A stretch of DNA of 64,000 nt from Mobula hypostoma (GCF_963921235.1 NC_086097.1:128652001-128716000); one strand, 5' to 3'. Positions 3,061 to 64,000 are shown, counted from the stretch's first letter. Made by a program: numbers and translations. The notes: generated by a model not told the origin, from the letters alone.

Positions 3061-3130
3061 ACTCCATGGGGATTGGGTGAGGGAAGTGGGGAACAAGATT
3101 TTACCAAGTTAGGTACTGCTTCCAAATCAA

Positions 3131-3453
3131 TGCACAAATATTGCTGGAGGAACTCAGCAGGTCAGACAGGATCTATGGAGGAAAATGAACTGTCAATGTT
3201 TTGGCTGAGACGCCTCATCAGGACTGGAAAAACGTGAGGCAGAAGACACGGTAAAAGAGTGGGTGGAGGGGAAAGAGCAGGAGCTGGCAGATGATACCTG
3301 AATCAAGAGGAGGAAGGGGAAGCGGGAGGGTGGGGGAAGGGAAGAAAGAAGAATAACCTTTTCTTACATAGAAACCGCTGGGCTGCTGACGTACTCCAGC
3401 ATTTTGTGTGTATTGATCCAGATTTACAACATCTGCAGCCTCTCTTGTGTCAA
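3131..3453. mobile_element. Fold-back PLE pseudo-LTR insertion with decayed hammerhead (minus strand, ~3188-3226)
   Basis: PLE tail in opposite orientations at both ends; TSD tgcttccaaatcaa 3117-3130 / tgcttctaaatgaa 3454-3467. Confidence 0.75.
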
Positions 3454-3479
3454 TGCTTCTAAATGAAGGGAACATAAAA

Positions 3480-4180
3480 ACCACAAGACCGTAAGATATG
3501 GAAACAGAATTAGGTCATTTGGCCCATCAAGTCTGCTCCATCATTCCATCATGGTTGATCCATTGCCCTCTCAGCCCCAATCTCCCACCTTCTCCCCATA
3601 TCCCTTCAATCCCTGACTAATCAAGAATCTGTCAACCTCTGCCTTAAGTATACCCAATGATTTGGCCTTGACAGTTGCCTGTGACAATGAATTCCACAGA
3701 TTCACCACTCTCTGGCTAATGAAATTCCTCCTCCTCCTCTGCATGCTAAATGGACTTCCTTCTATTCTGAGGCCATGCCCTCTGGTCCTAGACTCACCAC
3801 TATAGGAAACAACTACTCTATCGACACTTTTCAATATTTGAAAAGTTTCAATCAGATCACTCCTCATTCTTCTAAATTCCGGCAAGTAAAGGGCCAAAGC
3901 CATCCATCAATTGTTCCTCATGCGATAAGCCTTTCATTCCCAGAATCATTCTCGTGAACTTCCTTTAAATTCTCTCCAATGTCATCACATCCTTTCTTAG
4001 GTAAGGCACCTAAAACTGCTCACAATACTGAAAGTGAGGCCTTACCAGTGCCTTATAAAGCCTCAACAGTACATCCTTGCTTTTATATTTTAGTCCTCTT
4101 GAAATTAATGCTAACATTGCATTTGCCTTCCTCACCACCAAATCAACCTGCAAATTAACCTTTAGGGAAACCTGCATGGC
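3480..4180 (-). mobile_element. CR1 LINE 3' fragment
   Basis: ORF 3571..3903 EFRRMRSDLIETFQIL...RTRGHGL...FISQRVVNLWNSL. Confidence 0.88.
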
Positions 4181-4305
4181 TCATGCGGTATCTTGTCCTT
4201 TCACATGGGTGAGAAGAGGATTCGGACCGTCAATCTGTGAGTTATTCCTGGAACTAATATGGTGGGATTACTCAACCCAATGGCTGCCTTTCAGCATTAC
4301 CAAAG

Positions 4306-4592
4306 AGGGGCACCTCAGTAGCATAGTGGTTAGTGTGACACTATTACAGCTCGGGGCATCAAAGTTCAGAGATCAATTCTGCCGTCCTCCTTAAGCAAGT
4401 TTGTACGTTCCTTGTGTGCTCGCAGGTTTCCTCAGGGTGCTCCGGTTTCCTCCCACGCTCCAATTGGCCACCGCAGGTTGTCCCGTCATTAGGCTAAGGT
4501 TAAATCGTGTTAAGTCAGTGGGTTTGCTGGGCAGTGCAGCTCGGGGGCCGGAAGGTCCTATTCCAAGCTGTATCTCCAAATAATTAAATAAG
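4306..4592 (+). mobile_element. tRNA-derived V-SINE-type element
   Basis: A-box TAGCATAGTGG; V-domain GGTTTCCTCAGGGTGCTCCGGTTTCCTCCCAC; CR1-like tail and A-rich end. Confidence 0.75.
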
Positions 4593-4614
4593 TAATGAGT
4601 CGATAGTATTTATT

Positions 4615-4852: not shown

Positions 4853-4984
4853 CATTTGTTGTTATGTGGACTGGTGAAGAGAATAGCATTAACATCTCAA
4901 TGAAAAAGCTGCCTACATACATAAAAGGGAAAAGAAAAGAGAGTTATGTTGATAAAACAACATGAAGTGAGATGGGAGATCATT

Positions 4985-6379: not shown

Positions 6380-7082
6380 TACACTCAGTGTCCACTTTAT
6401 AAGGTAGCTACACACATCAAATGCTGGTGAACGCAACTCTTAGGCTGAGCCTTTGGCGTGCCGAGCAACGGCCAGTTATGGAACCCCGAGAGTGGCTCCT
6501 GCAAAGAACCGCAGTCAGCGTGTTACTCCAGGTCAGGGTCTTCAAAATAACCCTGAAAGGGTAAAATAGAGATATTCATCATTATTATTAAGTACCATGT
6601 TGTTTGACATACAGTAGGTGATCATGGTCTAGGACCTTGATCATTCTTGGCAAATGTAATTCTTGGTAAATATAAGGTAGCTCCTGGCCACGGACTGTAT
6701 GTTCAAGGACTACTGCCTTCCTGTCAGCTTGAACCACTCTGGCCATTCTCCTCTCACTTCTCTCATTAACAAGGTGTTTTCACCCACAGAACTGCCACAC
6801 ACTGGATTTTTGTTTTGTTTTGTTTTTTGCACCATTCTTTGTAAACTCTGGAGATTGTTGTGCATGAAAATCCTAGTAGATCTGCAGTTTTTGAGGTATT
6901 CATACCACTCTGTTTTGCACCACAGCAAAGCCACTTGGATCGCATTTATTCCCCATTCTGATGTTTGGTCCAAACAACTAAACCCCTTGACCAGGTCTGC
7001 ATGTTTTCATGCATTGAGTTTCTGACACATGATTAGATATTTGCATTAAGTAGCAGATGTACAGGTGTACCTAATAAAGTAC
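6380..7082. mobile_element. Non-autonomous Tc1/mariner element (interrupted at 6410-6670)
   Basis: Left end TA|CACTCAGTGTCCACTTTATAAGGTA; right end GGTGTACCTAATAAAGT (inverted repeat); Tc1-type internal sequence. Confidence 0.72.
6410..6670 (-). other. Chimeric insertion: 26-nt PLE tail plus inverted copy of 7663-7884, with 12-bp TSD
   Basis: TSD tataaggtagct 6398-6409 / 6671-6682; 6436-6657 is the reverse complement of 7663-7884 (10 mismatches in 222 by hand count). Confidence 0.88.
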
Positions 7083-7284: not shown

Positions 7285-7744
7285 AGGTGGTTGGGGGACA
7301 ACTTCAACCCCTGCCGTATAAACTATCCTCATTTTTAATGAAACTAACATAGAACCAGGGTGGAGATACATCTCTCCCAAAAGAAGTGTAAGGTGCTCCT
7401 TCCCTCCGCTAGCCTGTATGTAACCCTTGGGCAAGGTGTAGCACCTGCTTAGCTCCCCCACCACACCCACAGATCAGGGTCATTTGAAGCCATGGGGGCA
7501 GGTGGTGGATGGTCGTATAAGCCCCTAGTTCATATCACGTCTTGGTTGCTTGACTACTGATTTCAGGCAGAATATCTCTGAAGAGCATTGAAAATGGATG
7601 GGGTCACCCATCTTGTAAAGACACTGCCCAGAAGAAGGCAATGGCAAGCCACTTCTGTGGAAACATTTGCTAAGAATGATCAAGGTCATAGACCATGATC
7701 ACCTACTGTATGTCAAACAACATGGCACTTAATAATAATGATGA
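7285..7744 (+). mobile_element. RTE-related non-autonomous retroelement/SINE
   Basis: GAAGGCAATGGCAAGCCACTTCTG resembles the RTE/BovB UTR motif; (AAT/GAT)n tail at 7730-7744. Confidence 0.55.
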
Positions 7745-8490
7745 ATATCTCTATTTTACCCTTTCAGGGTTCTTTTGAAGACCCCGGCCTGGAGTAATAC
7801 GCTGACTGCGGTTCTTTGCAGGAGCCGCTCTCCGGGTTCCATAACTGGCCGTTGCTCGGCATGCCAAAGGCTCAGCCTAAGAGTCCGGCTCGAATGCGGA
7901 AGTCTAGGATCTCGGGGCTCTGGAGACGGGTGGCTCGAGGCTTGGTGTCACTTCAGGAGACCCGTGTGTCATCGGGAGAGTCGGAATATCTGCTGTGTGC
8001 CTGGAGACCCTGGATCTTTGCGATCTTCAGGCACAGAGCTTGTAAAGAGCGAAGTAATAGACTTTTAACATCGTAAACCAATGAGTTGTTTCTTATGTCT
8101 CCCCGCTCGCTGGGAAAATGGAGACACCTCCTTCACCCTTATTAGGGAGAGAGAGAACCTGCGTATGTTGAACACCGGGTGAAACGCGAAGTCTTTAGGG
8201 TAATTGCAATTCTGTGTCTTTGCTGTTGCTTTGCTCACACTTGAGTGCTCGGTGACGGTGCTGATGCTTTTTTTTGCCGGTGGGGGGAGGGGGGATTGTT
8301 GCTCGCTGCCGCTTACGCGCAGGGGGAGGGAGAGCTGCGGGGGGGGGGCTTTGGGCTTCTACCATTTAACTGTTGTTCATTCTTTGGAACACACCTCTGT
8401 TTTCGTGGATGGTTGCAAAGAAAAAGCATTTCATGATGTATATTGTTTACATTTCTCTGCCATTAAATTGTACATTTGAACCTTTGAAGA
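7745..8490 (+). mobile_element. GC/CpG-rich non-coding retroelement with Rex1-like 3' end (family unassigned)
   Basis: CpG-rich body; ends ...tgtttacatttctctgccattaaa...ttgaacctttgaa like Rex1-type tails; no credible ORF. Confidence 0.45.
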
Positions 8491-12800: not shown

Positions 12801-13250
12801 ACCCCCCAGCAATTCTAGTTTAAACTCTCCCCAATAGCCTTAGCAAACCTCTCCGCCAGGATATTGATTCCCCTCGGATTCAAGTGCAACCCGTCCTTTT
12901 TGTACAATTCACACCTGCCCCAAAAGAAGTCCCAATGACCTAGAAATCTGAATCCCTGCCCCCTGCTCCAATCCCTCAGCCACGCATTTATCCTACACCT
13001 CTTTCTATTCCTATACTCGCTGTCACGTGGCACAGGCAGTAATCCCAAGATTACTGCCTTTGTGGTCCTGCTTCTTACCTTCCTTCCGAACTCCCCGTAG
13101 TCTGCTTTCAGGACCTCCTCCCTTTTCCTGTCTATGTCGTTCGTACCAATATGTACCACAACCTCTGGCTGTTCTCCTTCCCACTTCAAGATATCATGGA
13201 TGTGATCAGAAACATCCCAGACCCGGCACCTGGGAGGCAAACTACCATCC
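9817..13250 (-). mobile_element. Long disrupted CR1 LINE: ORF1 SGNH esterase, ORF2 APE endonuclease and RT, 3' UTR
   Basis: 12815..13267 VVVHIGTNDI...KDGLHLN; CVYFNARSIMNK; VMGDF; KSPGPDGMYPRLL; YIDFSKAFDKVPH; SGVPQGSVLG; YRTLVRPHLEYC; (catagaa)n tail; many frameshifts. Confidence 0.95.
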
Positions 13251-13544
13251 GCAATATCGAAACCCAATTACAGAAGAAAGGCAAGACTCCAATGAAGAGA
13301 CGGTGACAAGAGTTTATTGATAATAATTCCAAAAGTACATCGGTCAAGCAACAGTGCAAGAAGTAACCAGGAGATTATCGTTAATTGGACATCGGCTCAA
13401 ATAGAAGGAACACGGAATTGTTGAGCCTATCAAAATAAACCAGGAGACCGCTTACAAAGAGTGAGTTGCTTCAGAAAAACACAAAGAACTCAAAGAACGA
13501 TTCTTTCAAAGAAAGCATGCTCTCCAGTGCCTCCAACAGGCCTT

Positions 13545-18785: not shown

Positions 18786-18964
18786 TACACTGAATGCTCC
18801 TTTACTAAAGGCACAAGTTGGACAAGTCTTTAACTGAGGCTATGATAGCTATAACGGGTTGTTACCTTTAATATAAATCACGATCTTTTGGCTTGATTAC
18901 CTGGAGGGATCAAAGAGAAATTTCACATACATTTTCTCACATAATCAGTTTCCTACTGGCTTCT

Positions 18965-19213
18965 TCCTTAACACAAGAGGTTCTACAGATGTTTGAAATC
19001 CAGAGTAACGCATACAAAATTCTGGAGGACCCCTGAGGAAGGGTCTCAGGCCTAGGGGTTCCCAAGCTGGGATCCACGGACCTCTCAGTTACAGCTGGGG
19101 GTCCATGGCATAAAAAAGGTTGGGAACCCCTCCGCTCAAATGTCAACTCTTTACTCCTTTCCACAAATGCTGCCTGACTTGCTGAGTTCTTCCAACATTT
19201 TGTGTACATTTTT
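18965..19213. mobile_element. Fold-back PLE tail insertion carrying a nested MITE
   Basis: Inverted tails; candidate TSD ctggcttct 18956-18964 / 19214-19222. Confidence 0.7.
19053..19132. mobile_element. hAT (Charlie-like) MITE
   Basis: TIRs AGGGGTTCCCAA / TTGGGAACCCCT; internal GGGGTCCATGG; no clean 8-bp TSD seen. Confidence 0.7.
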
Positions 19214-19462
19214 CTGGCTTCTGTGATGGTAGATCTGAACCCCATTTGCCTCAATAACAAATATCTTTCCAAGTGCTTTCACCCAGCACTTGTTTCAGAA
19301 GCAATAGGTTATCAGGCTATTGCCCACATTCAGTAGTGGCAAGAATCAAAAGACCAGCTAGTTTGTTGAGCCTGCATCATACACTGTAATGACCTGAGCT
19401 CAGCACTAAAAACTGCTCATATTCTCCTTCTGAGTAGCCATGTAGGCTCTTGAGAAAGGTAA

Positions 19463-20262
19463 TTTTTTTTTATTTTAACAAAATATACTTTATTCAGAAA
19501 TAAAATTATGTCCAATAAACCATTCAATGACTGTCAATCCTTTACAGACGTTTCCACTACATTCTATACACAAAATAATCTGCAGATGCTGGGGTCAAAG
19601 CACCACTCACAACACGCTGGAGGAACTCAGCAGGTTGGGCAGCATCCGTGGAAACGATGAGTCGACGTTTCGGGCCGGAACACTTCGTCTTCCGGCTCGA
19701 AACGTCGAATCATCGTTTCCACGGATGCTGCCCGACCTGCTGAGTTCCTCCAGAGTGTTGTAAGTGTTCCACTACATTCTATACATTTCTACACTTTCAG
19801 CCACTCACGTGGCACTATGTTATTTCATCTTTACCCATCATTGTTGAGGGGTATACTCCCCGCCACCCGACCCCTCCCACTCCCCCGGGAAAAGGACCCT
19901 AAACAGTGGTCCTTCTCCACCGGGCCTTTGCTGTACCTGCACCAAGCTTCAGTGCGTCCCCCAGCACGTACTCCTGCAGCCGAGAATGTGCCAGTCGGCA
20001 GCATTCTCCCACGGACATCTCCATGTGCTGGTAGACCATCAAGTTTCGGGCCGACCAAAGAGTGTCTTTCACCGAGTTGACGATCTGCCAGCAGCACCGG
20101 ATGTTGGTCCCTGTGTGCGTCCCTGGGAACAGCCCGTAGATCAGAGAGTCCTCTGTTATGCAGCTGCTGGGGATGAAGCGTGACACTAGCCCGTCCATCC
20201 TCCTCCACACCTTCTCCACGAAACCACAGTGTGCAAAGAGGTGGGTCACAGACTCCTCCTCA
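19463..20262 (-). mobile_element. Tx1/L1-clade LINE, 5'-truncated 3' end
   Basis: EESVTHLFAHCGFVEKVW...LWSARNLMVY (ORF2 C-terminal zinc-finger region); AATAAA and poly(A) on the minus strand at ~19463-19495. Confidence 0.85.
19571..19766. mobile_element. Near-perfect palindromic PLE tail insertion
   Basis: Arms 19604-19680 / 19690-19766 (72/77 identical), 9-nt spacer; exact 19-bp TSD ttccactacattctataca 19552-19570 / 19767-19785. Confidence 0.9.
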
Positions 20263-20934
20263 CTGTAATAAATGTATAAAAACATACACGGGCCAACCGG
20301 GGAAATAGCAATTGGGTGCAAATGGGATCCTCGTGTCTTTACACATCGGGATCTTTATGTTTGTTATAACTTGCCCGAGGAGCAAAGTGATAGCCTGCTC
20401 CAGGTATACGTATTTACTGTTGGTCACTTTGTTTTCCAACATACTAACTTTTCAACGGCTCACCAACTGAACAAGACGTTATATACAACAGATTAGTGAG
20501 CTGTGAATGGCAGTAATTCGTTAGTTATGTTAATCTTAGATGCACAGATAAATGATGGAGTCAAATCATCATTTGCCATTCCCTACTGCACCTTCATTAT
20601 AAACCTCAGCCCCTCTTCACAATGGAATTCCATTAAGTTGGATACAAGTGAGTTCTCAACTGAATCACACCAACTGAATAGAGTTAACAATAATTCATGT
20701 GCCTTAAATAGACGTAATTAAGAATTTGGTTACTGCTTCATTTTGAACTTATTATTAAATTATTTCTATTGAAAACAATCTAACAATAATAGGTCATTTA
20801 ATTGTTTCAGTATTAATGAAAATGCAGTTTAACACAGCTATATTTTAATAGTTATATATCTTTTTTTCACATGGCATAAAGACTAAGATTAGAGTCTGTT
20901 ATAATTTTCTCCAACTGCTACCTCAGTTTAAAAA

Positions 20935-30094: not shown

Positions 30095-31155
30095 CAAAAC
30101 GGACAGAAAAATAAGGTGGAGGAGGGCGGGTGAAGTAAAAAGCTGGGAGTTCACAGGTTGAAGAAGTGAAGGGCTAAGGAAGAAGGAATCTGAGAGGAGA
30201 GTGGACCGTGGAAGAAAGAGTAGGAGCAGGAGCACCTGGGGGTGGTGATGGGAAGGTGATGAGAAGAGAAGGGGTGCAAGGGGAACCAGAATGGGGAGTT
30301 GAAAAAGAGAGAAGGGAGAGGTAATGAAAGTTACTGGAAGTTAGAGAAATCAATGTTCATGCCATCAGATTGGCGGCTAACTAGACAAAAAAATGAGGTG
30401 TTGCTCCTCCAACCTGATTATGGTCTCATCATGACAGTAGAGAAGGATATGGACAAAAATGTTGGGAATGGGAATGGAAAGTCAAATTGAAATGGGTGGC
30501 CAACAGAGCAAAGATACCGGACAAAGCAGTCCACCAATTTACTTTGGGTCTCACCAATGTAGAGCTCACCTCCACAGGAGCACCATGTACAGTAGATGAC
30601 CACAACAGATTCACAACTGAAGTATTGTCTCACCTGGAAGGACTGTTTAGGATTCTGAATGGTGCTGAGGGAGGTGGTGTGGGGGTATGTATGGCACTTG
30701 TCCCATGTGCCGGGATAAGTACTTGGAGGGAGACAAGTGGGGATGGATGAGTGGATATGGGGGCCATGTAGAGAGTGTGGGTGAGGGAAAGAATTGTTCA
30801 GTAGTAGGATCCCATTGTAGATGGTGGAAGCTATGGAAAATTATGTGCTCTCCCATCAGATTCTTTCTTCTTCAGCCCTTCACCTCTTAAACCTATTGGC
30901 TTCCAGCTCCTTAATTAACTTTGCCCTCTCCACCCATCCTCCTTCCCCCTCACCTGGTTTTGCCAGTTATCTGCCGGCTTGTACTCCTTCCCCTCCCTCA
31001 GCCTTCTAATTCTGGATCCTGTCTCCTTCCTCTCCAGTCCTGATGAAGGAGCTCGGCCCAAATTGTTGACTGTTTACAGATGCTGCCAGAGTTCCTCCAG
31101 CACTTTATGTGTGTTGCTCAAGATTTCCAGGATCTGCAGAATCCCTTGTGTTTAT
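30095..31155. mobile_element. Old PLE: minus-strand EN/pLTR (30095-30848) joined to plus-strand pLTR with decayed hammerhead (~31036-31072)
   Basis: 30418..30633 FSCESVVVIYCTWCSCGGELYIGETQ; then ccagtcctgatgaaggagctcggccc. Confidence 0.8.
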
Positions 31156-37045: not shown

Positions 37046-37240
37046 GCAACAAGAGGCATCATATTAAGGTTGTGCTTTATGCAGAGTCCTCCCACCATCT
37101 TCATGTGCAATCAGATTCTATTGTAGAGTGATGGGAAAGTCGAAACTGAGAGACGTAGAAGATATCTTCCAACATCTCTGTGACACGACTTCCAATATGG
37201 ATGGTACCCTTTCCTCAAGAGGATGTTATATACCATATGC

Positions 37241-37353
37241 AACACACATAAACACTGGAGGAACTCAGCAAGTCAGGCAGCATCTGACCTTCCTGTGTTT
37301 TATGTGTGTTGCTTTGGATTTTCAGCATCTGCAGCCTGTTTCATTTTTATTAA
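37241..37353. mobile_element. Tiny fold-back PLE tail insertion
   Basis: aacacacataaacactggaggaactcagc...ttttatgtgtgttgc...cagcatctgcag; TSD ataccatatgc 37230-37240 / ataccacgtgc 37354-37364. Confidence 0.7.
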
Positions 37354-37989
37354 ATACCACGTGCCATGGCACCACCATTCTCAACTGTTGCTCACTGAAG
37401 GTATCAGCTGTGCGCCATGAGGTCATGAAGTCTGTCTATGCGTATCATTGATGTAATGGCATGATGTTCCTATATGGTTGAATGACTGACAATGGGTGTA
37501 GTGTTAGAGGTCTGTTTGCAAGATTTAAGGCGTGGAAAGTGTGTTGATAGTGGGTGATGAAATGTTAGCAGGGAACGGGAATGCATCTGGTGGGATATGT
37601 GATATTAAGTTATATGTGTTGAACACAGCATTTTGCTCACTGACGTTGCATCCACAGGCTTGAAGCTTGATTTCTCACATTGAGTGTCACAGTCCTCTGC
37701 CTTTACCTAGTGGTTCTCCGGACTCTTCACACATAAAAGACCTCTCTCTTACCTTCCTTTTTGTCTGTCAATGCTCACCGAGTCAATTGGAAGACTCTGG
37801 GCCCCTTCTCTCAGCTGTGAACTTCCAATAAGCATGAAAGACCATTGGAAAAACTTCCACCTATTCTCAGCCACGGTACCTCACTTCCTTAGCAGGTACA
37901 GCTTGATGCAGAAAAGATTGCCATGGATCCTGTGTAGTGATCACACTCAGATTCATGAAGCTGTCTCTATCCATTGCACCAAGTTGCCT

Positions 37990-39025
37990 GCCACCTCCAA
38001 CGAACATATAATTCTCTGTAACTTCTGCCACCTCCAACGGGATCCCACCACTAAGCACATCTTTCCCTCCCCCCCCTCACTGCTTTCCGCAGGGATCGCT
38101 CCCTACACGACTCCCTTGTCCATTCATCCCCCCCCATCTCTTCCCACCGATCTTCCTCCTGGCATTTATCCTTGTAAGTGGAACAAGTGCTACACATGCC
38201 CTTACACTTCCTCCCTTACCACCATTCAGGGCCCCAGACAGTCCTTCCAGGTGAGGCGACACTTCACCTGTGAGTTGGCTGGGGTGATATACTGCATCCG
38301 GTGTTCCCGATGTGGCCTTCTATATATTGGCGAGACCCGACGCAGACTGGGAGACCATTTCGCTGAACACCTACATTCTGTCCACTGGAGAAAGCAGGAT
38401 CTCCCAGTGGCCACACATTTTAATTCCACGTCCCATTCCCATTCTGATATGTCTATCCATGGCCTCCTCTACTGTCAAGATGAAGTCACACTCAGGTTGG
38501 AGGAACAATACCTTATATTCCGTCTGGGTAGCCTCCAACCTGATGGCATGAACATTGACTTCTCTAACTTCCATTAATGCCCCACCTCCCCTTTGTACCC
38601 CATCCGCTATTTATTATTATTACTTTTTTCCCTGTTTTTTCTCTCTCTCTTTTTTCTCCCTCTGTCCCTCTCACTATACCCCTTGCCCATCCTCTGGGCT
38701 CCCCTCCCCCTTTCTTTCTCCCTAGGCTTCCTTTCCCATGATCCTCTCCTTTCTCCAGCCTCATATCCCCTTTGCCAATCAACTTTCCAGCTCTTAGCTC
38801 CATCCCTCCCCCTCCTGTCTTTTCCTGTCATTTCGGATCTCCCCCTCCCCCTCCCACTTTCAAATTTCTTACTATCTCTTCTTTCGGTTAGTCCTGACGA
38901 AGCGTCTCGGCCCGAAACATCAACTGTACCTCTCCCTATCGATGCTGCCTGGCCTGCTGCATTCACCAGCATTTTTTTGTGTGTGTTGCTTGAATTTCCA
39001 GCATCTGCAGATTTCCTTGTGCTTG
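37990..39025 (+). mobile_element. 5'-truncated PLE: linker, GIY-YIG, pLTR, hammerhead (38890-38925), complete tail
   Basis: CKWNKCYTC...GVIYCIRCSRCGLLYIGETRRRL; agtcctgacgaagcgtctcggcccgaaacatc. Confidence 0.93.
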
Positions 39026-39409
39026 TGCTTCTATTTCCTACATCATTTTGAGTAAGCCAGTTGCATCAAGATTCACGAATCCAGCCTCAAGAGGTGTATT
39101 GGAAAATCACCACCCACCCCCTACCCCAAGATTAATTCAGAGAGCTGCTAAGAGTCAGTCATTTTGCTGTGTGTTGTGTCCCACATAGAAAAGGATAAGG
39201 AATGATTGGCAGATTTCCTTTCCTGAACAACAAACCTAAACGAGACAGGCTTTTGTAGCAAAAGTTTCAAGACCGCAACCAATTTTAAATCCAGTTTGCA
39301 ACTTTAATAGTTCCAAATGTCTCAATAGGATCTGAAATCATTACTTTACACCAATAGTCCAGGATTTTAGACAACAGCCCAGTCACTTTATCCAAGGCAA
39401 ACATTCTTT

Positions 39410-44237: not shown

Positions 44238-44725
44238 TAGATTGATTTATTATTGTCACATTTTCTGAGGTACAGTAAAAAAAACCTGTTTGGAATACTG
44301 TTAATACTGATCAATTCATAGCAACATCACACTGAGGTAGTACAACGTAAAACAATAACAAAATGCAGAATAAAGAATTACAGAGAAAGTGCAGTGCAGA
44401 TGGACAATAAAGGTAGACCCTGAGGTCAAGAGTCTATCTTATTGTACAAGGGGACCACGCAATAGTCATATAACAATGGAATAGAAACTGTCCTTGTGCC
44501 TGGTAGTGTGTTCTTTCAGGCTTTTGTATCTTCTGCCTGATGGAAGTGGGAGGACAGAGAATGTTGAGGGAGGGTGGGGTTTTTGATTATGCTGGGTGCT
44601 TTACAGATGTAGGAAGAAGTGTAGACAGAGTCCATGGAGGAGAGGCTGGTTTCTGTGATGTGCGGAGCTGTGCTCACAACTCTGCAGTTTTTTGCAGTCA
44701 CAGCTGGGGCTGTTACCATACCAAG
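44238..44725 (-). mobile_element. Rex1-type 3' fragment
   Basis: AWYGN.S...ITETSL.SMDSVY..KA.SIIK.P; tttattattgtcacat tail. Confidence 0.75.
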
Positions 44726-46189: not shown

Positions 46190-46615
46190 GACAGAAAAAC
46201 CCAGAATTTTGAAAGAACTCAACGGTCAAGCAGCATCTGCAGAGGTGTAGGTGTAAGCTGAGAGTTCTTGTGGAGACCTTGTAACACCCTTCTGCCCCGC
46301 CACAGTTCTCCTTCAACACACACTCACGTGTCCACCTAGTTTTTTCTCTTTTTATTCACCTTCCTATCGCCCCCACCCCCAACCTGGTTCCATCCGCCTA
46401 TCATTTCCTCCCCGTCTGGTTCAGCCTATCACTCTCCAGCCTTTATCTCCCTCCCTATTTCTCTGCTGTATACAGGCGATGTTTGCTCCACGCTCTCAGT
46501 TCTGAAGTGGAGTCTCAGCTTGAGTGGGAAACTTACACCTTTTGCCTCCACAGATGCTGCTTGACCCGCTGAGTTTTATAAGTGTTGTTTTCTTTTCTTG
46601 TTCCAGATTTCAGCG
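46190..46615. mobile_element. Old fold-back PLE pLTR
   Basis: aactcaacggtcaagcagcatctgcagagg / cctccacagatgctgcttgacccgctgagtt. Confidence 0.65.
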
Positions 46616-53152: not shown

Positions 53153-53457
53153 CTCTCCTTTTCTTGCTGGGCTGATAGACTTGTGTTCAAAGATTTTTCT
53201 CATTCTTAAGTTGCCCGCGATCAGAGAGGGAATCATTGAGTCATTAGCCAGCTCACTGACTAATCCCATCAATACCACTTATTCCCACTATCCCATTTTC
53301 TTTCACATGCACAACCTTTGAAGTTCCTTAGCACAAACCATTTTATGAGGAACTAGTAGTGTGACATGGCCCAGCTAAGGGGAACATTCTGGGATGACTT
53401 GGCCAGACTCATGTTTCATTACACTAGGGGTAGGTAGAACCTTAGAATCTAGTGACA

Positions 53458-53676
53458 CTAGACACAAGGGATTCTGCATTTGCTGGAAATCTTGAGCAAC
53501 GAAATGTTGGACGAACTCAGCAGGTCAGGAAAATTCTATGGAGGGGAACAAATATGATATTCCAGGCCGAGATCCTTCATCTGTCCTGGGCCTTGGCCAG
53601 AAATGTCACTGTTTATTCCCCTCCACAGATGCTACATGATCTGCTGACTTCCTCTTGTTTTTTCATGTTTTGACCC
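53458..53676. mobile_element. Fold-back PLE tail insertion
   Basis: gaactcagcaggtcagg...cttcatc / cagatgct...tctgctgacttcctc; candidate TSD agtgaca 53451-53457 / 53677-53683. Confidence 0.68.
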
Positions 53677-54449
53677 AGTGACATCTGGTTACATATCCAA
53701 GCTCTATGCACAAGGTAATGCAGCCATACTTACACAAGGATGAGGGCAAAAATTTCTCCCCTTTCTCTTGAGATTTCTACATCATATCACAGTGAATGCC
53801 ATCTATTTGTAGATGCAGATGAAATGGAGGATGTCATGCCACAGGAGTGTTCATGAGCCACACCAGTACAGTGTACACAGCACCAAAGGGACACAGTTCC
53901 CATATTCCCAGTTTCCATTTCAGTTTGGCAATCCACTCTGGTCGATCCTTACAACATATCCCGCTCCTCTGAGCCCGATTCCCAGCACATTTCAGGGAAT
54001 TAGAACGGACACTGAAAGAAACAGAGAGTTGGTTAAGTTAGTTATAAAAGAACATGACATTGCTTTTGCTGTGATTGACTTTGGCCCCCAAGGCCAGTTC
54101 AAACCAGACTCAGATACTGATCAATCTGTGAACCAACCGTGAACCTGAGCAGGAGATGATTGTGTAATCCATGTACAGGGTGTCTTTGATCTGAGTGCCT
54201 CAGCTGCTTGAAATTCTGTTTTTCTCCATGTCCCTCCTCATGGGATCTGACGAAAGATTCCATACAACACGTGAACATGACAGAAAACAAGCCATACTCC
54301 AGACGTGATATCTATTTCCCATCCATCGAATCGGACTGTGCTGCTAATGTCTGTGTGGAACAGTAGTATCCGATTACAAATCCCCTCCCCAATCCTGATT
54401 TTGGAGAGCAGGTTCATCGTGGACACATGCAGTGTTCATCAAAGTTCAT

Positions 54450-55734: not shown

Positions 55735-56418
55735 TCATGAGAAGGGGGCATGTTCTAGATGGTCAGAGTCCTAATGATGATGATGATGCATCTTGAAGAT
55801 GACCTCTCTGGTGGGAAGGCTTGTGCCTGGGATAGAGTTGGTTGAGTCAATAAACCTCTGTGCCCTCTTTCGATCCTGTACATCGAAGCCTCCAAAACAG
55901 GCTGTGATTACAGTAGTCAGAATGCTCTCCACGGTACATCTGTAGAAATTTTCTAGAGCCTTTGGTGACATACCAAATCTCCTAAGACTTCTAATGAGGT
56001 AGAGTGGTTGGCGTGCCTTCATTGTGATTGCATCAATATGTTGAGTCCAGTCTCGATCCTCTGAGATGTTGATGCCCAGGAACTTGAAACTGCTCATGCT
56101 TTTAACAGCTGACCCCCTCAAAAACAACTGTGTATGTTTGCTCGGCTTCCCTTTCCCAAAGTTCACAATCAGTTCCTTGATCTTGCTGACGTCAATTGCA
56201 AGGTTATTGTTGTGAACTGTACATCTGAAATTCAGCCAACAGCAGTGGTGTTATTAGCATATTTATGGATGGTTTTTGACCTGTGTTTGATGGTGTAGAG
56301 GGAGAAGAGCAGTGGCTAAGCATGTATCCTTGAGGTGTGTCTGTATTAATTGTCAGTGAGGAGGAGATGTTATTACAGATCCGCACTGACTGTGGTCTCC
56401 AGATGAAGAGACCCAGGA
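55735..56418 (-). mobile_element. Rex1/Babar RT and C-terminal fragment
   Basis: SFKFLGINISED..WTQHID...LRRFGMSPKALENFYRCTVESILT; ISSSLTINTDTPQG. Confidence 0.87.
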
Positions 56419-56599
56419 TCCAGCTGCAGAGGGAGATACATGAAAATCAAAGTATGTTGGCAGATCCAGGGAAATTGTTCAATAATCAAGAGTTGGATTT
56501 ACATGTACAGTTGTCATTTCCCAACATCCCAATTGCACCTATTTATGGTTACTTAGCAAAAGGCAGAAAGAAGGATTTCAGCTCCATACCAGCACCTAT

Positions 56600-58550
56600 C
56601 AGTCATATTCCCACCTCCTACCCAAGATTCACAAACTCGCTAGTCAAGGTACACCCATTGTTTCAGCTTGTTCCTGCCTTACTGAACTCATATCTGCACA
56701 CCTCCACTCTGTTTTACCTTCCCACTTCAGTCCCTTCCTACCTACATCCATGACACTTCACACGCCCTGGATCTTTTCAATGATTTCAGGTTCCTTGGCC
56801 ACCATCATCTTACTTTTACTATGGATGTCCAGTCCCTATACACCCCTCTCCCCCACCAGGAAGGCCTCAAAGCTCTCTGTTTTCTTCTGGACACCAGACC
56901 TAACCACTCTCCTCCGTCTAGTGGAACTTGCCCTCACTCTCAATAATTTCTCCTTTGGCTCCTCCCACTTCCTTCAAACAAAAGGTGTAGCCGTGGGCAC
57001 TCACATGGGTCCCAGTTTTGCCTGCCTGTTTGTCAGCTACGTGGAACAGTCTATGTTCCAAGCCTACACTGGTGACTGTCCTGCATTTTTCCTACGCTAC
57101 ATCAACGACTGCATTGGTGCTGCTTACTGCACCCATGCTGAACTCGTCCACTACATCTACTTTACCTCCAAATTCCACCCTGCCTTCAAATTTACCTGGT
57201 TCATTTCTGACACCTCCCTCCCCTTAAATTTACCTGGTCCATTTCTGACACCTCCCTCCCCTTTCTCGATCTCACTGTCTCTATCTCTGGAAACAGCTTA
57301 TCCACTGATGTCTATTATAAACCCATGGACTCTTACAACTACCTGGACTATACCTTGTCCTACCCTGTTACTTGTAAAAACACCATCTGATTCTCTCAAT
57401 TCCTCCGTCTCCACTGCAACTTCTCTCAGGATGAGGCTTCTCATTCTAGAATGAAGGAGATGTCCTCCTTTTTCAAAGAAAAGGGCTTCCCTTCCTCCAC
57501 CATCAACGTTGCCCTCAACAACATTTCTTCCATTTCATGCATGTCTGCTCTTACCCCTCCCTCCCGCCACCATACAAGGGATAGGGTTCCTCTTATCCTC
57601 ACCTACCACCCCATCTGCCTCCGCATCCAGCACATAATGCTCCAAAACTTCCACCACCTCCAACGGGATACCACCACCAAGTACATCTTTCCCTCCCCCC
57701 CACTTTCTGCTTTCCATAGGGATCGCTCCCTATGCTACTCCCTTCATCCCTCCCCACTGATCTCCCTCCTGGCACTTACCCTTGCAAGTGGAACAAGTGC
57801 TACACCTACCCCTACACCTCCTCCCTCACTACCATTCAGGGCCCTAAACAGTCCTTCCAGGTGAGGTGACACTTCACCTGTGAGTCTGCTGGGGTCATAT
57901 ACTGTATCTGGTGCTCCCAGTGTAGCCTCCTGTATATGGGTGAGACCCAACATAGATTGGGAGACTGCTTTGCCGAGCCTGAAAATGCAGGATCTCCCAG
58001 TGGCCACCTATTTTAATTCCAATTCCCATTCCTATTCTGATATGTCCATCCATGGCCTCCTACACCTGTCATGATGAGGCCACATTTAGGTTGGAGGTGC
58101 AACACCTTATATTCCGTTTGGGTAGCCTCCAACTTGATGGCATGAACATTGATTTCTCAAACTTCTGGGAAAGCCCCCCAACCCCCCCTTCACCATTTCC
58201 CATCCCCTTTTTCCACTCTCACCTTATTCTCTGCCCACCCATCACCTCCATCTGGTGCTTTTCACCCCATTACTTTCTTCCAGAGCCTTCTGTCTTTTTC
58301 ACCAGTCAGCTTCCCAGCTCTTTACTTCATCCCTCCCCCTCCAAGTTTCAGCTATCACCTGGTGCTTCTCTCTCCCCTCCACCCTCCTTTTAAATCTACC
58401 CCTCAGATTTTTTTCTCCAGTCCTGCCGAAGGGTTTCAGCCGGAAACGTCAACTGTACTCTTTTCCATAGATGCTGCCTGGCCTGCTGAGTTCCTCTAGC
58501 ACTTTGTACGCATTACTTAGATTTCTAGCATCTGCAGATTTTCTCTTGTT
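56600..58550 (+). mobile_element. Longest PLE copy: degenerate RT, linker, GIY-YIG, pLTR with variant hammerhead (58418-58455)
   Basis: LLPKIHK...PIVS; TMDVQSLYT; NNFSF.SSHFLQTKGVAVGTHMGPSFACLF; FLRYINDC; frameshifts including a 38-bp tandem duplication 57188-57263. Confidence 0.92.
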
Positions 58551-58599
58551 AGTCTCATTTCCATGCTCTTATTTCACTGTAATCCTTCAGTTTATTTAC

Positions 58600-59062: not shown

Positions 59063-59318
59063 AGATTTAAGCCATCCTGTAGCAAGGCATGGCATTCAGA
59101 TGCATCTAACCTACTGGGAACGCAATAGTTTGTGTCTTCACAATCTTGATTGAGAAAGTATGACCCGGGGGAAGAATTGAAAGTGGAACTATCGGATATT
59201 TTAACTCTCCCTTGATTTATAGAGGTGATCCAAATGAGATTATCTTTATTTTGTGATGGAAGAGTCAGTCTCAACATATGTGTCCAAGCCTGTGCAACTT
59301 CAGCCCATATCCTCACTC

Positions 59319-59439
59319 ACAAACATGAGAAACTCTTCAGGTGTTGGAGGTCCAAGCAACACACACAAAATGCTGCAGGAACTCAGCAGGCCAGGCAGCA
59401 TCTATGGAAAAGAGTACAGTCGACGTGTCAGGGTGCGTC
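59319..59439 (-). mobile_element. PLE tail truncated within the hammerhead
   Basis: gcaacacacacaaaatgctgcaggaactcagcaggccaggcagcatctatggaaaagagtacagtcgacgt; TSD cctcactc 59311-59318 / 59440-59447. Confidence 0.78.
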
Positions 59440-60489
59440 CCTCACTCCACAGGTTGAGCCAGAGCTAATGTAAGTTTGAGTTAAACAGAGGCAGATCGTT
59501 CTGCCATCCGAAACAGAGCCCGTCCCCTGAGCAGAGGCAGCAGAAATGACAAACCGCACACAACATTCTGAATAGGGCTCCTTGTAGGAGCACAGTGGGA
59601 GTCAAATCCTCTTTCACGTCATATTATCTGACAGATGTAGGCAGACCCCTGTCAGACAAAAAGCTTCCTGCACCTGGATACAATGAGCTGCCATTTTGCT
59701 GTCTTTTTCACAGTGTTGTGAAGCCAATTGGCCAGCTTAAATAGCATTACATGATTTTAAAAACGTTCTCTTGTATGCAAAAAAAAAAGTCAGCTGCAAC
59801 AGCATTGCTACCGTTTGCAAGGCAGAAGTTGCACAACGTCACCAGTGGCAAAGAAAACAACAATGACAATGGCATTATAATTTTCAGATCAAAGCAAAGT
59901 ATGTCTACCAGGTAAAAAGGATTACTTTCCCAATTAACATTCCAACTGTACTGGATCAAAGAGAGGGCTCTTCTGCGAAGATTCCTACAACGGCAGTCCC
60001 ATCAAACACCCACAGCCCACCGATTTTACTGAAGCTGTACTACTGACTACACCTTGCTCATTTGAAGTAGTATTACAGTGAAAACATTTTATTGTTCAGT
60101 CTTGGAATAATAAAAAATTTGTGGCAGGGAATTATGCCCATTCAACCATGCCAGCAAGAATAGTCTACCAACGTTATTGAGCTCCCATTTCCTAGTCTTG
60201 CTGGTTAGTTTCACATGGACTGAGATACAGTGAAGAGCTTTTGTTTGCATGGCATCAAGACAGATCATTCCATGATTAAGTAGATCACGGTCGTATAAAA
60301 ATAATAACTGAATGTGTGTCTTCTTTATGTTTGCTTCAATTTGCTGGTATAGCCCGGGCAAGTTCTGTGGATGGCACAGCTTGCAGCCACTGTGTCTCTG
60401 TGATGGATGGGGTACAGTCAAATGGGACGGTGTAGAAGTTCTCCAGCGCTGTAGGATCAGTACACATCCAAGCAAGTGAGGAATATTCC

Positions 60490-61232
60490 ATTCAGGGCCC
60501 CAAACAGTCCTTCCAGGTGAGGCATCACTTCACCTGTGAGTCGACTGGGGTGATATACTGCGTCCGGTGCTCCCGATGTGGCCTTTTATATATTGGTGAG
60601 ACCCGACGCAGACTGGGAGACCGCTTTGCTGAACATCTACGCTCTGTCCGCCAGAGAAAGCAGGATCTCCCAGTGGCCACACATTTTAATTCCACATCCC
60701 ATTCCCATTCTGACATGTCTATCCACGGCCTCCTCTACTGTAAAGATGAAGCCACACTCAGGTTGGAGGAACAACACCTTATATTCCGTCTGGGTAGCCT
60801 CCAACCTGATGGCATGAACATTGACTTCTCTAACTTCCGCTAGGCCCCACCTCCCCCTCGTACCCCATCTGTTACTCATTTTTATGCACACATTCTTTCT
60901 CTCACTCTCCTTTTCCTCCCTCTGTCCCTCTGAATATACCTCTTGCCCATCCTCTGGGTCACCCCCCCCCCGTCTTTCTTCCCGGACCTCCTGTCCCATG
61001 ATCCTCTCGTATCCCCTTTTGCCTATCACCTGTCCAGCTCTCGGCTCTATCCCTCCCCCTCCTGTCTTCTCCTATCATTTTGCATCTCCCCCTCCCCCTC
61101 CAGCTTTCAAATCCCTTACTCACTCTTCCTTCAGTTAGTCCTGACGAAGGGTCTCGGCCTGAAACGTCGACTGCGCCTCTTCCTACAGATGCTGCTTGGC
61201 CTGCTGCGTTCACCAGCAACTTGGATGTATGT
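60490..61232 (+). mobile_element. Young 5'-truncated PLE (GIY-YIG and pLTR)
   Basis: ORF 60517..60843 has the same protein as 316..642; exact 13-bp TSD tgaggaatattcc 60477-60489 / 61233-61245. Confidence 0.95.
61136..61173 (+). ncRNA. Minimal type I hammerhead ribozyme (intact)
   Basis: tagtc CTGACGA agggtctcggcct GAAA CGTC gactg, identical to 935-972. Confidence 0.85.
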
Positions 61233-62092
61233 TGAGGAATATTCCTTTACACTTCTAACTTTTGTCTTGTGGGTGGTGGACGAGGTCTGAGGTGACAGAA
61301 GCTGAGTTACTCACTACAGGGTATCCAAATCTGACCTACTCTTATAGTCATGGGATCTACGTGGTTAGTCCAGTTCACCAGTTCAGTTTCTGGTCAATTG
61401 TGACTCCCCCCCCCCCCCGCGGATATAAATGGTGGGGTAAATTAGTGATAATAGTGCCCTATTTAATTTAACTCGAGTGCTGTTGCTAGGTGACTAGAGT
61501 AGGCACTCTTGCCCCTCAATCAGAACATTCAGTCTGACACTTGAAATCAAACATGTGAGTTACATTGCATCTCGCTTTTGGAGGTCGTGTTATTCACGTG
61601 AAACATTACACTGTCACCACACCCTCTTAGATGGAAACAAGCATCAGAGTATAGGCCTCTCAGGTTACAAATACGTTCAGTTTTTACAGAGTCCATCAGT
61701 CTATTTTGCCTGTAAGTAGGAAAATACACAAAATTTTTTTGATTTGGTAACCATACCTCCATAGTATTTATCAAACACACATAAGATAAATAAGAAAGCA
61801 TTACTAATAAAAGCAGGAACAAAAGGATCTGCCATTTGTCTGAATGAAGTTATGCTTATCAGACTTTTGAACAGAGTATCATGCGATCTTGCCCCTATGA
61901 AGGGGCATCTATAATTTGGGTGTTCATAACCTGGGGATGGCCTGCACACTATTTGAAGAAGAGTGGGAGAGTGATCTTTGGAGTGTTGTCCGACCCAGTA
62001 TCTATCTTCCAAATGATATTGAGAAGTTATTATTTGTTACAATCATAATGCCAATTGTGGGAGCTTGCTGTGCACAAATTGGCAACTGCATT

Positions 62093-62358
62093 TATCTCAC
62101 TGTTGTAAGACTATTGAACAGTCCCCTTGTACAATAAGATGGACTGTTGTCCTCACAATCTACCTTGCACCTTATTGTGTGCCAGCACTGTACTTTCTCT
62201 CTAACTGTAACACTTTATTCTGCATTCTGTTGTTGCTTTCCCCTTGTACTACCTCGCTGGACTGATGTGTTGTAATGATCTGTATAGGTGGAATGCAAAA
62301 GAACGGTTTTGTCTGGACCTCGGCATATTTGGCAACAACAAATCAATTTACCAACTTA
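62093..62358 (+). mobile_element. Rex1-type 3' UTR
   Basis: tatctcactgttgtaagactattgaac...caatttaccaa tail, homologous to 52860-53150. Confidence 0.7.
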
Positions 62359-63126
62359 TCAACAGGAATTCTGCAGATGCTGGAAATTCAAGCAACACAC
62401 ATAAAAGTTGCTGGTGAACGCAGCAGGCCAGGCAGCATCTCTAGGAAGAGGTGCAGTCGACGTTTCAGGCCGAGACCCTTCGTCAGGACTAACTGATGGA
62501 AGAGTGAGTAAGGGATTTGAAAGTGGGAGGGGGAGGGGGAGATCCAAAATGATAGGAGAAGACAGGAGGGGGAGGGATAGAGCCAAGAGCTGGACAGGTG
62601 ATAGGCAAAAGGGATACGAGAGGATCATGGGACAGGAGGTCCGGGAAGAAAGACAAGCGGGGGGGACCCAGAGGATGGGCAAGGGGTATATTCAGAGGGA
62701 CAGAGGGAGAAAAAGACCTCCTGTCCACGGCCTCCTCTATTGTAAAGATGAAGCCACACTCAGGTTGGAGGAACAACACCTTATATTCTGTCTGGGTAGC
62801 CTCCAACCTGATGGCATGAACATCGACTTCTCTAACTTCCGCTAATGCCCCACCTCCCCCTCATACCCCATCTGTTACTTATTTTTATACATACATTCTT
62901 TCTCTCACTCTCCTTTTTCTCCCTCTGTCCCTCTGAATATACCCCTTGCCCATCCTCTGGGTCCCCCCCCCACCCCTTGTCTTTCTTCCCGGACCTCCTG
63001 TCCCATGATCCTCTCATATCCCTTTTGCCTATCACCCGTCCAGCTCTTGGCTCCATCCCTCCCCCTCCTGTCTTCTCCTATCATTTTGGATCTCCCCCTC
63101 CTCCTCCAACTTTCAAATCCCTTACT
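62359..63126. mobile_element. Young PLE inversion insertion: minus pLTR (62359-62715) plus plus-strand EN end/pLTR (62722-63126)
   Basis: Exact 14-bp TSD aatttaccaactta 62345-62358 / 63127-63140; 6-nt filler acctcc at the junction. Confidence 0.92.
62454..62491 (-). ncRNA. Minimal type I hammerhead ribozyme (intact)
   Basis: cagtcgacgtttcaggccgagacccttcgtcaggacta is the exact reverse complement of 935-972. Confidence 0.85.
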
Positions 63127-63194
63127 AATTTACCAACTTACCAATTTTCCTCTATGACAGTGACTGCTGTTCAAAAGTACTGTTTTGGTTGTGG

Positions 63195-63426
63195 ATTTAA
63201 AAACGTAAACACGAGGAATTCTGCAGATGCTGGAAATTCAAGCAACACACCTCAAATTTGCTGGTGAATGCAGCAGATTCGGGCCGAGAGCCTTCGTCAG
63301 GACTGACTGATAGCTCTTCCTTCAGTTAGTCCTGACGAAGGGTCTCGGCCCGAAACATCGACTGTACCTCTTCCGAGAGATGCTGTCTGGCCTGCTGCAT
63401 TCACCAGCAAATTTGAGGTGTGTTGC
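63195..63426. mobile_element. Fold-back PLE tail insertion with divergent hammerhead motifs (63278-63304 minus, partial; 63327-63364 plus)
   Basis: gcaacacacctcaaatttgctggtgaatgcagcag / ctgctgcattcaccagcaaatttgaggtgtgttgc; TSD tttggttgtgg 63184-63194 / 63427-63437. Confidence 0.88.
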
Positions 63427-64000
63427 TTTGGTTGTGGGGTGCTATCGGATATACTAAGATTGTGAAAGCTACTGATTCTTCTTTTCATAGTGTGAAAGTT
63501 GGAATTGATCAAAACACTAAACTTGACTGGACATTGTGCTAAGGAGCCTCTGTACGCTCTTAAAGAGAAGGGATTTCTGTCTGCTTCATTTTCCAATTTC
63601 CTGCATGATTATCATTTATTTTATGGATTGATTTAAATCTCATCATTTCATCGTCATTAATTCTCACCATTTTACGAGCCCAGCATATCTGTCCTCGAAA
63701 CTGTCTGCTTACTTTCCCACCAGCTTCTGACATTTTACAGTTATAGAGCTATACAGTTTTGCTGATGCATAAGAACATTATGAGATTTCCTGTCATTCTT
63801 CTGCACACTGAGAGTACACAAATAATCTGTTTCTTTCTTCAAGCAGCCTGGGTGATAAGTAAAGCCCACTATGCATCTTGATTTTGATGAGGGAAATCAT
63901 TCCATATCTTTTTTAGCCAGAAATGATTTTCCATTTGGTAAAAAAACACCTGCAAAAGCCAGAATCATTCAGTTGTCCACAGATGCACTGTTGATTTACT

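Follow-up and report, generated by a model that had tools for sequence, protein, structure and literature searches.

Known inverted insertions of Penelope-like elements

Insertions that combine an inverted truncated copy, a 30–40-bp tail on one end and a target-site duplication (TSD) of 8–10 bp are already described for Penelope-like elements (PLEs). They are represented by the inverted-pLTR insertions of Pen2a_Av and Pen2_Av of Adineta vaga (PMC3846280), and the legend to Figure 2 of Craig et al. 2021 gives the general inverted-pLTR scheme (PMC8557442). The insertions analyzed here, from 64,000 nucleotides of the genome of the ray Mobula hypostoma (hereafter, the window), resemble both in several respects: an inverted 5'-truncated copy adjoins the 5' end head to head; a tail of this kind is present at one end only; a TSD surrounds the whole unit; and the junctions are palindromic. 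They differ in that the arms are mostly very short (45–400 nt), the TSDs reach up to 19 bp and the host is a ray. In their relevant sections, these two papers attribute the structure to self-priming or to resolution by the endonuclease, whereas the nesting of the ray arms favors two primings; PMC8557442 itself calls the way in which PLEs form inverted ends undefined.

A mechanistic counterpart is provided by PAc, the Poseidon element of Anolis carolinensis, for which both target strands are nicked and extended in vitro (Frangieh et al. 2024, PMC11167929). The PAc RNA has two adjacent start sites whose spacing equals the genomic tail, and ribozyme mutants leave insertion unchanged. The likeness to the ray family thus lies in two start sites bounding the tail, extension of both strands, a predicted dimer and a hammerhead dispensable for insertion. 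However, PAc belongs to a clade other than that of the ray family, and the main-text sections of PMC11167929 concerned discuss neither inverted insertions nor a pairing of start sites between nicks, and saw no strand difference in the start site.

Minimal hammerheads of metazoan PLEs, Neptune of fishes included, were reported by Cervera and de la Pena 2014 (PMC4209133), and the ray motif shares with them a short helix I, an unpaired base before helix II and a loopless palindromic helix III. Opposite-strand motif pairs 100–700 bp apart are already noted there for Schistosoma; in contrast to the present analysis, the corresponding sections do not treat these pairs as TSD-bounded single events, and rays go unmentioned in them. 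We found nothing in the freely available literature on PLEs inserted in inverted form in sharks or rays, nor on the paired use of two start sites. The ray pairs, which an earlier note on this DNA had presented as a recurring class, do recur, but such pairs are already published as the standard form in which endonuclease-bearing PLEs insert, and that label was an overstatement. The catalogue itself is not news; new here are the nesting test, the one-arm tail rule, the positions of the breakpoints relative to the ribozyme cut and the survival of hairpins and ribozymes.

The ray element

The family is an endonuclease-bearing PLE with a GIY-YIG domain, a cysteine linker and a putative minimal hammerhead. 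The linker is of the Neptune/Nematis type, and the closest proteins come from rays. The longest copy of the parent element (56486..58553, plus strand) is broken and retains RT fragments, linker, GIY-YIG endonuclease, hammerhead region and tail; its disrupted RT motifs (56861-57205) match RVT_1 at E = 0.058, below the cut-off, and ray and shark proteins align over both the RT-side and endonuclease regions of 56821-58171. The GIY-YIG profile PF01541 is matched above the cut-off by 60436-60840 (E = 3.5e-5), with a stop and the 3' repeat following; 37711-38574 matches it at E = 0.0035. A single-arm copy on the plus strand (38002..39028) combines an open endonuclease frame (38002-38574), a C-X4-C-X2-C linker, a cysteine pair inside GIY-YIG, a hammerhead and a tail. 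The linker in this frame fits the CX2-5CxxC pattern, between RT and endonuclease, by which PMC8557442 defines Neptune/Nematis; likewise, the CCHH configuration read in the translations, two cysteines lying between the GIY motif and the YIG motif plus downstream histidines, is one that PMC8557442 employs as a criterion.

The full minimal-hammerhead pattern was recovered in 5 of 29 arms tested. A search of Rfam at E up to 1 returned five matches, none of them a hammerhead, and the microRNA and RRE matches are hairpin look-alikes far under the gathering score. A 24-letter degenerate pattern found no stretch in viral or metagenome contigs. The window holds neither a tandem nor a full-length copy. 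The family is very abundant, with 148,427 contigs of run X1 matching the 1477 bases at 61240-62716.

Nine head-to-head pairs with private junctions

Using a profile made from the window's own copies, which gave no match on the reversed window, we recovered two opposite-strand arms at all nine loci (A to I below) where inverted PLE 3' pairs had been claimed. At each of them the arms are 5'-truncated, with their 5' ends adjoining and their 3' ends facing outward, a uniformity with a chance of 4e-6 under random orientation. No abutting tail-to-tail or tandem pair was found in the window, the nearest approach being that of pairs F and G, which lie ~60–75 nt apart, each with its own TSD. About 9 of the 21 scorable insertions in the 64 kb are inverted. 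The earlier note's view of the pairs as repeated independent products with junctions differing each time is borne out: all nine junction pairs are distinct rather than collapsing into a few amplified families, and they are single insertion events of several subfamilies and ages. These counts pertain to nine loci in a single window, five of which are old (arms ~75–83% alike where measurable), with breakpoints uncertain by several nucleotides.

The TSDs were assessed at boundaries near the profile ends against 600 random and 72 mis-paired controls. The exact duplications at C (19 bp), F (14 bp) and G (11 bp) were each matched at that exact length by 0 of the 600 random controls; B has 9 bp exact (p = 0.015) and A 14 bp with two mismatches (p = 0.010). 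Borderline cases are E, with 7 bp exact (p = 0.12 in a loose search window, 0.01 in a tight one), and D, with a candidate read by eye (p about 0.04–0.07). The duplications of 7–19 bp claimed previously are therefore beyond chance at five loci (9–19 bp) and borderline at two; H and I, described from the outset as lacking a clear TSD, indeed have none (p 0.12–0.96). Taken together, exact repeats of at least 9 bp at no fewer than four of the nine loci have a chance of 6e-6, well removed from chance frequency. One TSD encloses both arms clearly at 5/9 loci. Single-arm copies may likewise lie within a TSD, as do 2 of 11 tested: a young plus-strand copy (60478..61245; arm ~60491-61234) with a clipped 3' end, a 12–13-bp TSD, a GIY-YIG frame and a whole hammerhead, which shares 98.6% identity with another copy, at 287-1024, and a tailed minus-strand copy (59311..59447; arm ~59319-59439) with an 8-bp TSD.

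At five of the seven TSD-bounded loci, no arm contains its partner. In the following, arm starts are counted from the ribozyme cut, and left arms are on the minus strand and right arms on the plus strand. Locus A (3117..3467; TSD 3117-3130/3454-3467) joins a clipped left arm (3131-~3354), whose 5' end lies ~147 nt upstream of the cut, to a tailed right arm (~3356-3453) starting at about +8. Locus B (18956..19222; TSD 18956-18964/19214-19222) has a tailed left arm (18965-~19030, start about +44) and a clipped right arm (~19032-19213, start about -29), in which an ~80-bp terminal-inverted-repeat element (~19053-19131) is nested. Locus D (37230..37364) is bounded by its 11-bp candidate TSD (37230-37240/37354-37364, two mismatches at one CpG), with a clipped left arm (37241-37285, start about +21) and a tailed right arm (~37284-37353, start +38 to +49). 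The clearest case is locus F (62345..63144; TSD 62345-62358/63127-63140, extending to 18 bp with one mismatch). Its left arm (~62363-62715) is tailed, has a whole hammerhead and starts at about -256; its right arm (~62720-63126) starts at about -448 and ends at -46, directly abutting the TSD, and hence carries neither ribozyme nor tail. The staggered arms of F are 97% alike over 209 nt; at least one of the six differing sites matches a between-subfamily difference, and the differences are compatible with one or two RNA molecules. Among the listed contigs of runs X1, X5, X9 and X13 matched to 61240-62716, none runs over its left junction, and they showed no empty target site in relatives. In locus G (63184..63437; TSD 63184-63194/63427-63437), the left arm (63195-63310, start about -38) has the full tail and an internal 36-nt deletion over the cut site, and the clipped right arm (63311-63426, start -49) a whole hammerhead; the two are non-nested by ~10 nt.

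The arms are nested at locus C (19552..19785; TSD 19552-19570/19767-19785), where a tailed left arm (19571-19689, start -26) and a clipped right arm (~19687/19691-19766, start about -17) form a near-perfect palindrome with 80-nt arms, a 3-nt turn and a 2–3-nt overlap at the turn, the only fold-back-like junction of the set. Locus E (53451..53683), whose candidate TSD (53451-53457/53677-53683) abuts both ends, is nested or ambiguous, with a tailed left arm (53458-~53589, start about -34) and a clipped right arm (~53588-53676, start about -20). Both pairs without a TSD are old: H (30095..31155) has a left arm (30095-~30853) that includes the endonuclease region and ends ~25 nt before the cut, possibly through erosion, and a tailed right arm (~30855-31155); in I (46190..46615), a clipped left arm (46190-~46276, start about -17) is nested with a right arm (~46290-46615) bearing a partial tail.

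Similarity between arms varies. At C and G, the arms are 93% and 96% alike, respectively, whereas none of 11 further copies in the window exceeds ~85% identity to those of C or ~91% to those of G; the arms of G have common letters that are absent from the other copies. Since these arms are nearest to each other, the two templates derive from a single source or from sources very close to each other. At A (75% alike) and E (76%), there is no sign of gene conversion between arms, their identity not exceeding that to other copies. Read by eye at the four loci where they are clear, the junctions have 4–5 extra nucleotides at F, no overlap at G and 2–3 shared nucleotides at C and D, so that microhomology is not a rule.

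One further event, absent from the earlier note, lies at 6398..6682 on the minus strand, within a 12-bp exact TSD (6398-6409/6671-6682). Its interior (6410-6670) consists of a lone 26-nt clipped element tip directly at the TSD (6410-6435), a 222-nt stretch that repeats window positions 7663-7884 in inverted orientation (95.5%) and 13 nt of filler; here, the element apparently switched onto neighboring host DNA. We rejected a DNA transposon as the source of the 222-nt inverted repeat (6436/7884): the one frame tested has no Pfam match and the TSD lies elsewhere.

How the pairs arise

We propose, with a probability of roughly 0.7, that the pairs are single insertions in which both staggered target nicks prime reverse transcription of the element RNA, likely one per 3' start site. 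Nicks staggered by 7–19 bp would yield the TSD, and each 3'-OH would start one cDNA, either at the tail site or the clip site or, in one case, internally. The two cDNAs would end early, with host repair joining them through 0–3 nucleotides in common or as many as 5 additional ones, and the resulting hairpin would thereafter decay neutrally. In L1 twin priming, too, both target nicks prime and the head-to-head junction lies within one TSD; the second primer there pairs with a distant upstream site and the arms share hardly any sequence, whereas in the ray family each of the two arms is a copy of one and the same 3' end. Priming from both nicks, one of the two origins proposed in the earlier note, is compatible with all loci. 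Two quantities were not significant: arm lengths are correlated at a Spearman coefficient of 0.4 (p = 0.29), and the non-tailed arm is, as predicted, the one reaching further 5' at only 6 of 9 loci.

Under the other proposed origin, cDNA fold-back, priming takes place at a single nick; the end of the cDNA turns back on itself to copy the cDNA's start, and opening and joining of the hairpin follow. At A, B, D, F and G, the arm extending furthest 5' is without 3' sequence present in the other arm; therefore, neither was copied from the other, and simple target-primed fold-back is excluded at these loci. Because no arm is a sub-copy at 5/7 TSD-bounded loci, fold-back is unsupported as a general mechanism, and we consider it unlikely, even though PMC3846280 takes junction palindromes as self-priming. 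True fold-back is possible at the nested loci C, E and I; the palindrome and overlap of C, the nested or ambiguous arms of E and I, and the private letters common to both arms at C and G all speak for it. Against fold-back stand the extra letters at F and the lack of overlap at G. Moreover, the non-tailed arm of the nested loci stops at the clip site also used by single copies, for which fold-back offers no reason.

This clip site is one of the two places where 3' ends cluster, roughly +59 to +72 and +97 to +108 from the cut, ~35–40 nt apart. A tail is present on exactly one arm in 9/9 pairs, two of them doubtful (the left end of H perhaps eroded, the tail of I partial), against six tailed and six clipped among 12 single copies (p = 0.002; p = 0.008 with the seven TSD loci). 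Given this contrast, the two primings look coupled. The strict one-sidedness would also be accounted for if a free intermediate, hairpin or double-stranded, formed first with both arms complete and the endonuclease then clipped one of them before integration, giving non-nesting after fold-back; PMC8557442 suggests, in the part concerned, that the tail stems from endonuclease-mediated resolution of an intermediate. We find this improbable: the main text of PMC11167929 places both tail ends at reverse-transcription start sites in target-primed reactions, the right arm of F ends ~115 nt short of the clip site, and the 6410-6670 event bears a clipped tip without a partner arm.

That the ribozyme cut determines where the RNA ends, and thereby where the pair turns, is highly improbable. 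Breakpoints do lie 15–50 nt upstream of the cut in 8 of 18 cases (5/9 loci), an excess over simple length models (p 0.01–0.03) for an interval picked after the data were seen, and the alignment of an old single copy without a TSD (27981-28047) begins at -1. However, a tie to the cut is unsupported, as 0/18 junction breakpoints are within 5 nt of it, the nearest being at +8; 14/18 arms reach 5' of it, and therefore their template was uncut; and the PAc ribozyme mutants insert normally. The whole minimal-hammerhead pattern survives in 2/18 arms and never in both arms of one locus; the ribozyme would be a passenger in the junction, its cut not setting the breakpoints.

A few amplified palindromic mini-elements, or chance neighbors from two insertions, can practically be dismissed despite the family's abundance and a few unexplained joints at ~20 times single-copy depth, since the nine junction pairs all differ and belong to different subfamilies, with no MITE-like sharing of junction and length among them, a single TSD spans both arms, and the 15 best-supported joints listed (326 further) include 3 with a strand change, in 1–3 contigs each by incomplete counts.

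Returning to the priming of both nicks, a tentative extension, to which we give less than an even chance, is that one dimeric Penelope ribonucleoprotein hands the two start sites of one RNA to the two nicks, one each, in a fixed way. Early stops would then concentrate immediately 5' of where the hammerhead cuts, at the transcript 5' end or a protein-bound ribozyme fold, and the complex could switch to neighboring host DNA to produce small inverted duplications. If true, such staggered twin priming would account at once for the inversion of the pseudo-LTR, the presence of a tail on one side, the length of the TSD and the private letters common to both arms.

Implications

Simple counts of nesting, tail pairing and breakpoint positions separate the models, and the ray family is a very large sample from nature on which to make them; the nine loci already favor both-nick priming over fold-back. 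As for the proposal that the family is a source of short palindromes, a strong hairpin persists in three of the eight loci folded and not in the other five. If about 4 in 10 insertions are inverted, as in the window, the family would continually add short hairpins to the genome and, now and then, duplicate host DNA in inverted form, with most of these products decaying.

Identity of the Element Family

Self-comparison of the window recovered a single abundant repeat family with several subfamilies. The translated frames match the GIY-YIG endonuclease domain PF01541 (60436–60840, E = 3.5e-5); the GIY and YIG motifs enclose cysteines, and a C-X4-C-X2-C linker precedes the domain. According to the excerpted text of PMC8557442, a linker of this kind is characteristic of two clades of Penelope-like elements (PLEs), Neptune and Nematis. 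In the longest copy (56486–58553) the reverse-transcriptase motifs are broken, and its RVT_1 match (E = 0.058) falls below the cut-off. Related proteins number 12 among 414 candidates, the closest coming, by name, from Mobula and Hypanus rays at 77–81% identity; only the proteins P0001 and P0002 reach 87–94%, against the young copy at 1–636 or 60487–60837. A myliobatiform ray is thus the probable host. Five ray gene models (P0004, P0006, P0008, P0011 and P0012), named as kinase, mucin, chitinase-domain, receptor and NLR genes, contain pieces of the PLE frame, probably reflecting annotation run-through or exonisation. The 3' part of the family carries a minimal hammerhead ribozyme of the type described in PMC4209133 (as excerpted), which an Rfam search missed. 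The youngest subfamily in the window comprises the single-arm copies 287–1024 and 60488–61225, 98.6% identical, with a whole hammerhead and an open endonuclease frame.

Other repeats share the window. A second high-copy, non-PLE repeat (62098–62357 and 44231–44478; summed contig depth up to 165,000) lies directly left of the pair at 62359. Fragments at 1167–1700, 43420–43884, 55771–56250, 12815–13267, 19899–20354 and 32781–33182 resemble non-LTR retrotransposons of several other families, and the Pfam matches among these putative fragments are to ALKBH8_N and GDSL-esterase. A weak U6 snRNA match at 37877–37974 (21.6 bits, gathering threshold 44; E = 0.58), just 5' of a single-arm copy starting near 38000, is probably due to chance.

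Head-to-Head Pairs and Their Target-Site Duplications

Profiles built from window copies resolved 30 arms (5'-truncated PLE copies), of which 18 form nine abutting pairs on opposite strands and 12 stand singly; the same profiles had no match in the reversed window. All nine pairs stand head to head with their 3' ends outward (4e-6 under random orientation). That these are insertions bounded by target-site duplications (TSDs), as the earlier note had it, was correctly seen, the TSDs being more frequent than chance. Those of pairs C (19571; 19 bp), F (62359; 14 bp) and G (63195; 11 bp) are exact and were equalled by 0/600 random pairs; B (18965) has an exact 9-bp TSD (p = 0.015) and A (3131) one of 14 bp with two mismatches (p = 0.010), while E (53458; 7 bp, exact) and D (37241; 11 bp, two mismatches) are borderline (p = 0.01–0.12 by window size). 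At H (30095) and I (46190), already named as lacking clear TSDs, the same test found none. Mis-paired controls numbered 72, one of which scored 30 as a flank was compared with itself. The TSD of F may extend to 18 bp with one mismatch. In the loose ends of aligned contigs the tail continues into the letters opening the left arm of G, so that G's TSD adjoins the true tail end. Single copies also carry TSDs (2 of 11 examined; 12–13 bp and 8 bp); hence, the duplications go with the family's insertion and not with the inversion. Inspection by eye of clipped 3' ends (3130, 37240, 61234 and 63426) showed the TSD sharing 2–3 letters with the element continuation at most of them, which suggests short primer-template pairing.

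One Tail per Pair

Counted from the predicted hammerhead cut, and with profile ends that overshot into the TSD corrected by eye, the 3' ends form two groups, a clipped one at about +59 to +72 and a tailed one at +97 to +108. Single copies divide into six tailed and six clipped. In each pair the tail is present on one arm only (9/9, the tail of I being partial and the other end of H perhaps eroded), with p = 0.002 if ends were independent and p = 0.008 for the seven TSD loci. The two primings look coupled.

Within C (71/76 alike) and within G (66/69), the two arms resemble each other more than either resembles 11 other window copies, which suggests a common source, whether a single transcript or a pool of transcripts. 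At F the arms differ at 6/209 sites, one or more of which coincide with a difference between subfamilies, and they may derive from two RNAs. Two observations speak against a simple one-RNA model: only 6/9 loci have the non-tailed arm extending further 5', and arm lengths show no significant correlation across pairs.

Fold-Back or Two Primings

If a target-primed cDNA folded back, it would template the second arm from its own sequence, and one arm would have to sit within the other. Among the eight scorable loci (all but H), the nested arms of C, with a fold-back-like turn, those of I, and those of E, nested or ambiguous, fit this expectation. However, five loci (A, B, D, F and G) depart from it: the arm reaching furthest 5' lacks the tail, its partner is tailed, and neither is contained in the other; the strongest case is F, where the arms run from about −256 to the tail and from −448 to −46, with the TSD adjoining both. 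Thus, five of the seven TSD-bounded loci need two priming events, and the "fold-back" in the title of the earlier note is wrong for most loci.

We advance the following likely mechanism. The endonuclease would nick both strands 7–19 bp apart; each 3'-OH would then prime cDNA synthesis, one at the tail site and the other either at the clip site or at a more internal position; both cDNAs would stop early, and their ends would be joined and filled in by host repair. The scheme follows in vitro findings on the anole element PAc in the excerpted text of PMC11167929: both strands are cleaved and extended, two adjacent start sites bound the tail, a dimer is predicted, and ribozyme cleavage is dispensable. 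The pairing of start sites between the two nicks is what we infer here, and does not feature in that excerpt.

Breakpoints and the Ribozyme

The 18 hand-curated junction ends, counted from the predicted cut and uncertain by several nt or more at old loci, lie at −851, −448, −256, −255, −170, −147, −49, −38, −34, −29, −26, −20, −17, −17, +8, +21, +38 and +44. The breakpoint pair differs at each of the nine pairs, bearing out the claim of private junctions within the window; the genome-wide evidence is only weak. None of the 18 falls within 5 nt of the predicted cut. Eight, from five loci, lie 15–50 nt upstream of it (p = 0.01–0.03 against simple length models, for an interval picked after seeing the data). 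Among the 15 contig joints listed (with 326 more beyond the list), two strand-change joints inside the element map to +22/−15 and +12/−31, and one old single copy without a TSD aligns from −1. Read by eye at four loci, the junction of G shows no overlap and that of F has 4–5 extra letters instead, while the overlap at C and D is 2–3 nt.

The whole hammerhead pattern is kept in 2/18 arms. Relative to their partners, the left arms of G (63277; 36 nt) and I (~46255–46262; about 7–13 nt) have internal deletions across the 3' half of the hammerhead region, and the right arm of B has an ~80-bp element with terminal inverted repeats, its own TSD not clear, nested in that region (~19053–19131).

A Tenth Event and the Fate of Palindromes

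The interval 6410–6670 is enclosed by an exact 12-bp TSD (6398–6409 and 6671–6682; chance 1 of 3000). It combines a 26-nt PLE tip that stops at the clip site (blast E = 0.001), 13 nt of filler and 222 nt that repeat, in inverted orientation and at 95.5% identity, the sequence lying 1 kb further downstream at 7663–7884. A PLE-primed cDNA likely switched template here onto neighboring host sequence; possibly, the 222-nt copy was instead drawn from a source elsewhere in the genome.

Folded as DNA against 12–40 shuffles (eight loci, H left out), C, G and F form strong hairpins (z = −22, −22 and −27), whereas A, B, D, E and I form weak ones or none (z = −0.9 to −3.0). The family thus generates palindromes, which then decay.

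Relation to Known Forms

As excerpted, PMC3846280 reports inverted pseudo-LTRs (pLTRs) with 9- and 10-bp TSDs and a 31-bp tail on one side only, head-to-head being the commonest arrangement and junction palindromes being taken as self-priming; PMC4209133 describes hammerhead pairs on opposite strands, 100–700 bp apart; PMC8969392 lists inverted pLTRs and 3' extensions among curation features; and bioRxiv 10.64898/2026.07.22.740005 finds Neptune and Poseidon widespread in vertebrates. The pairs in the window are an instance of this standard PLE insertion form, in a very abundant ray family; what merits a genome-wide count is the apparent coupling of the two start sites.
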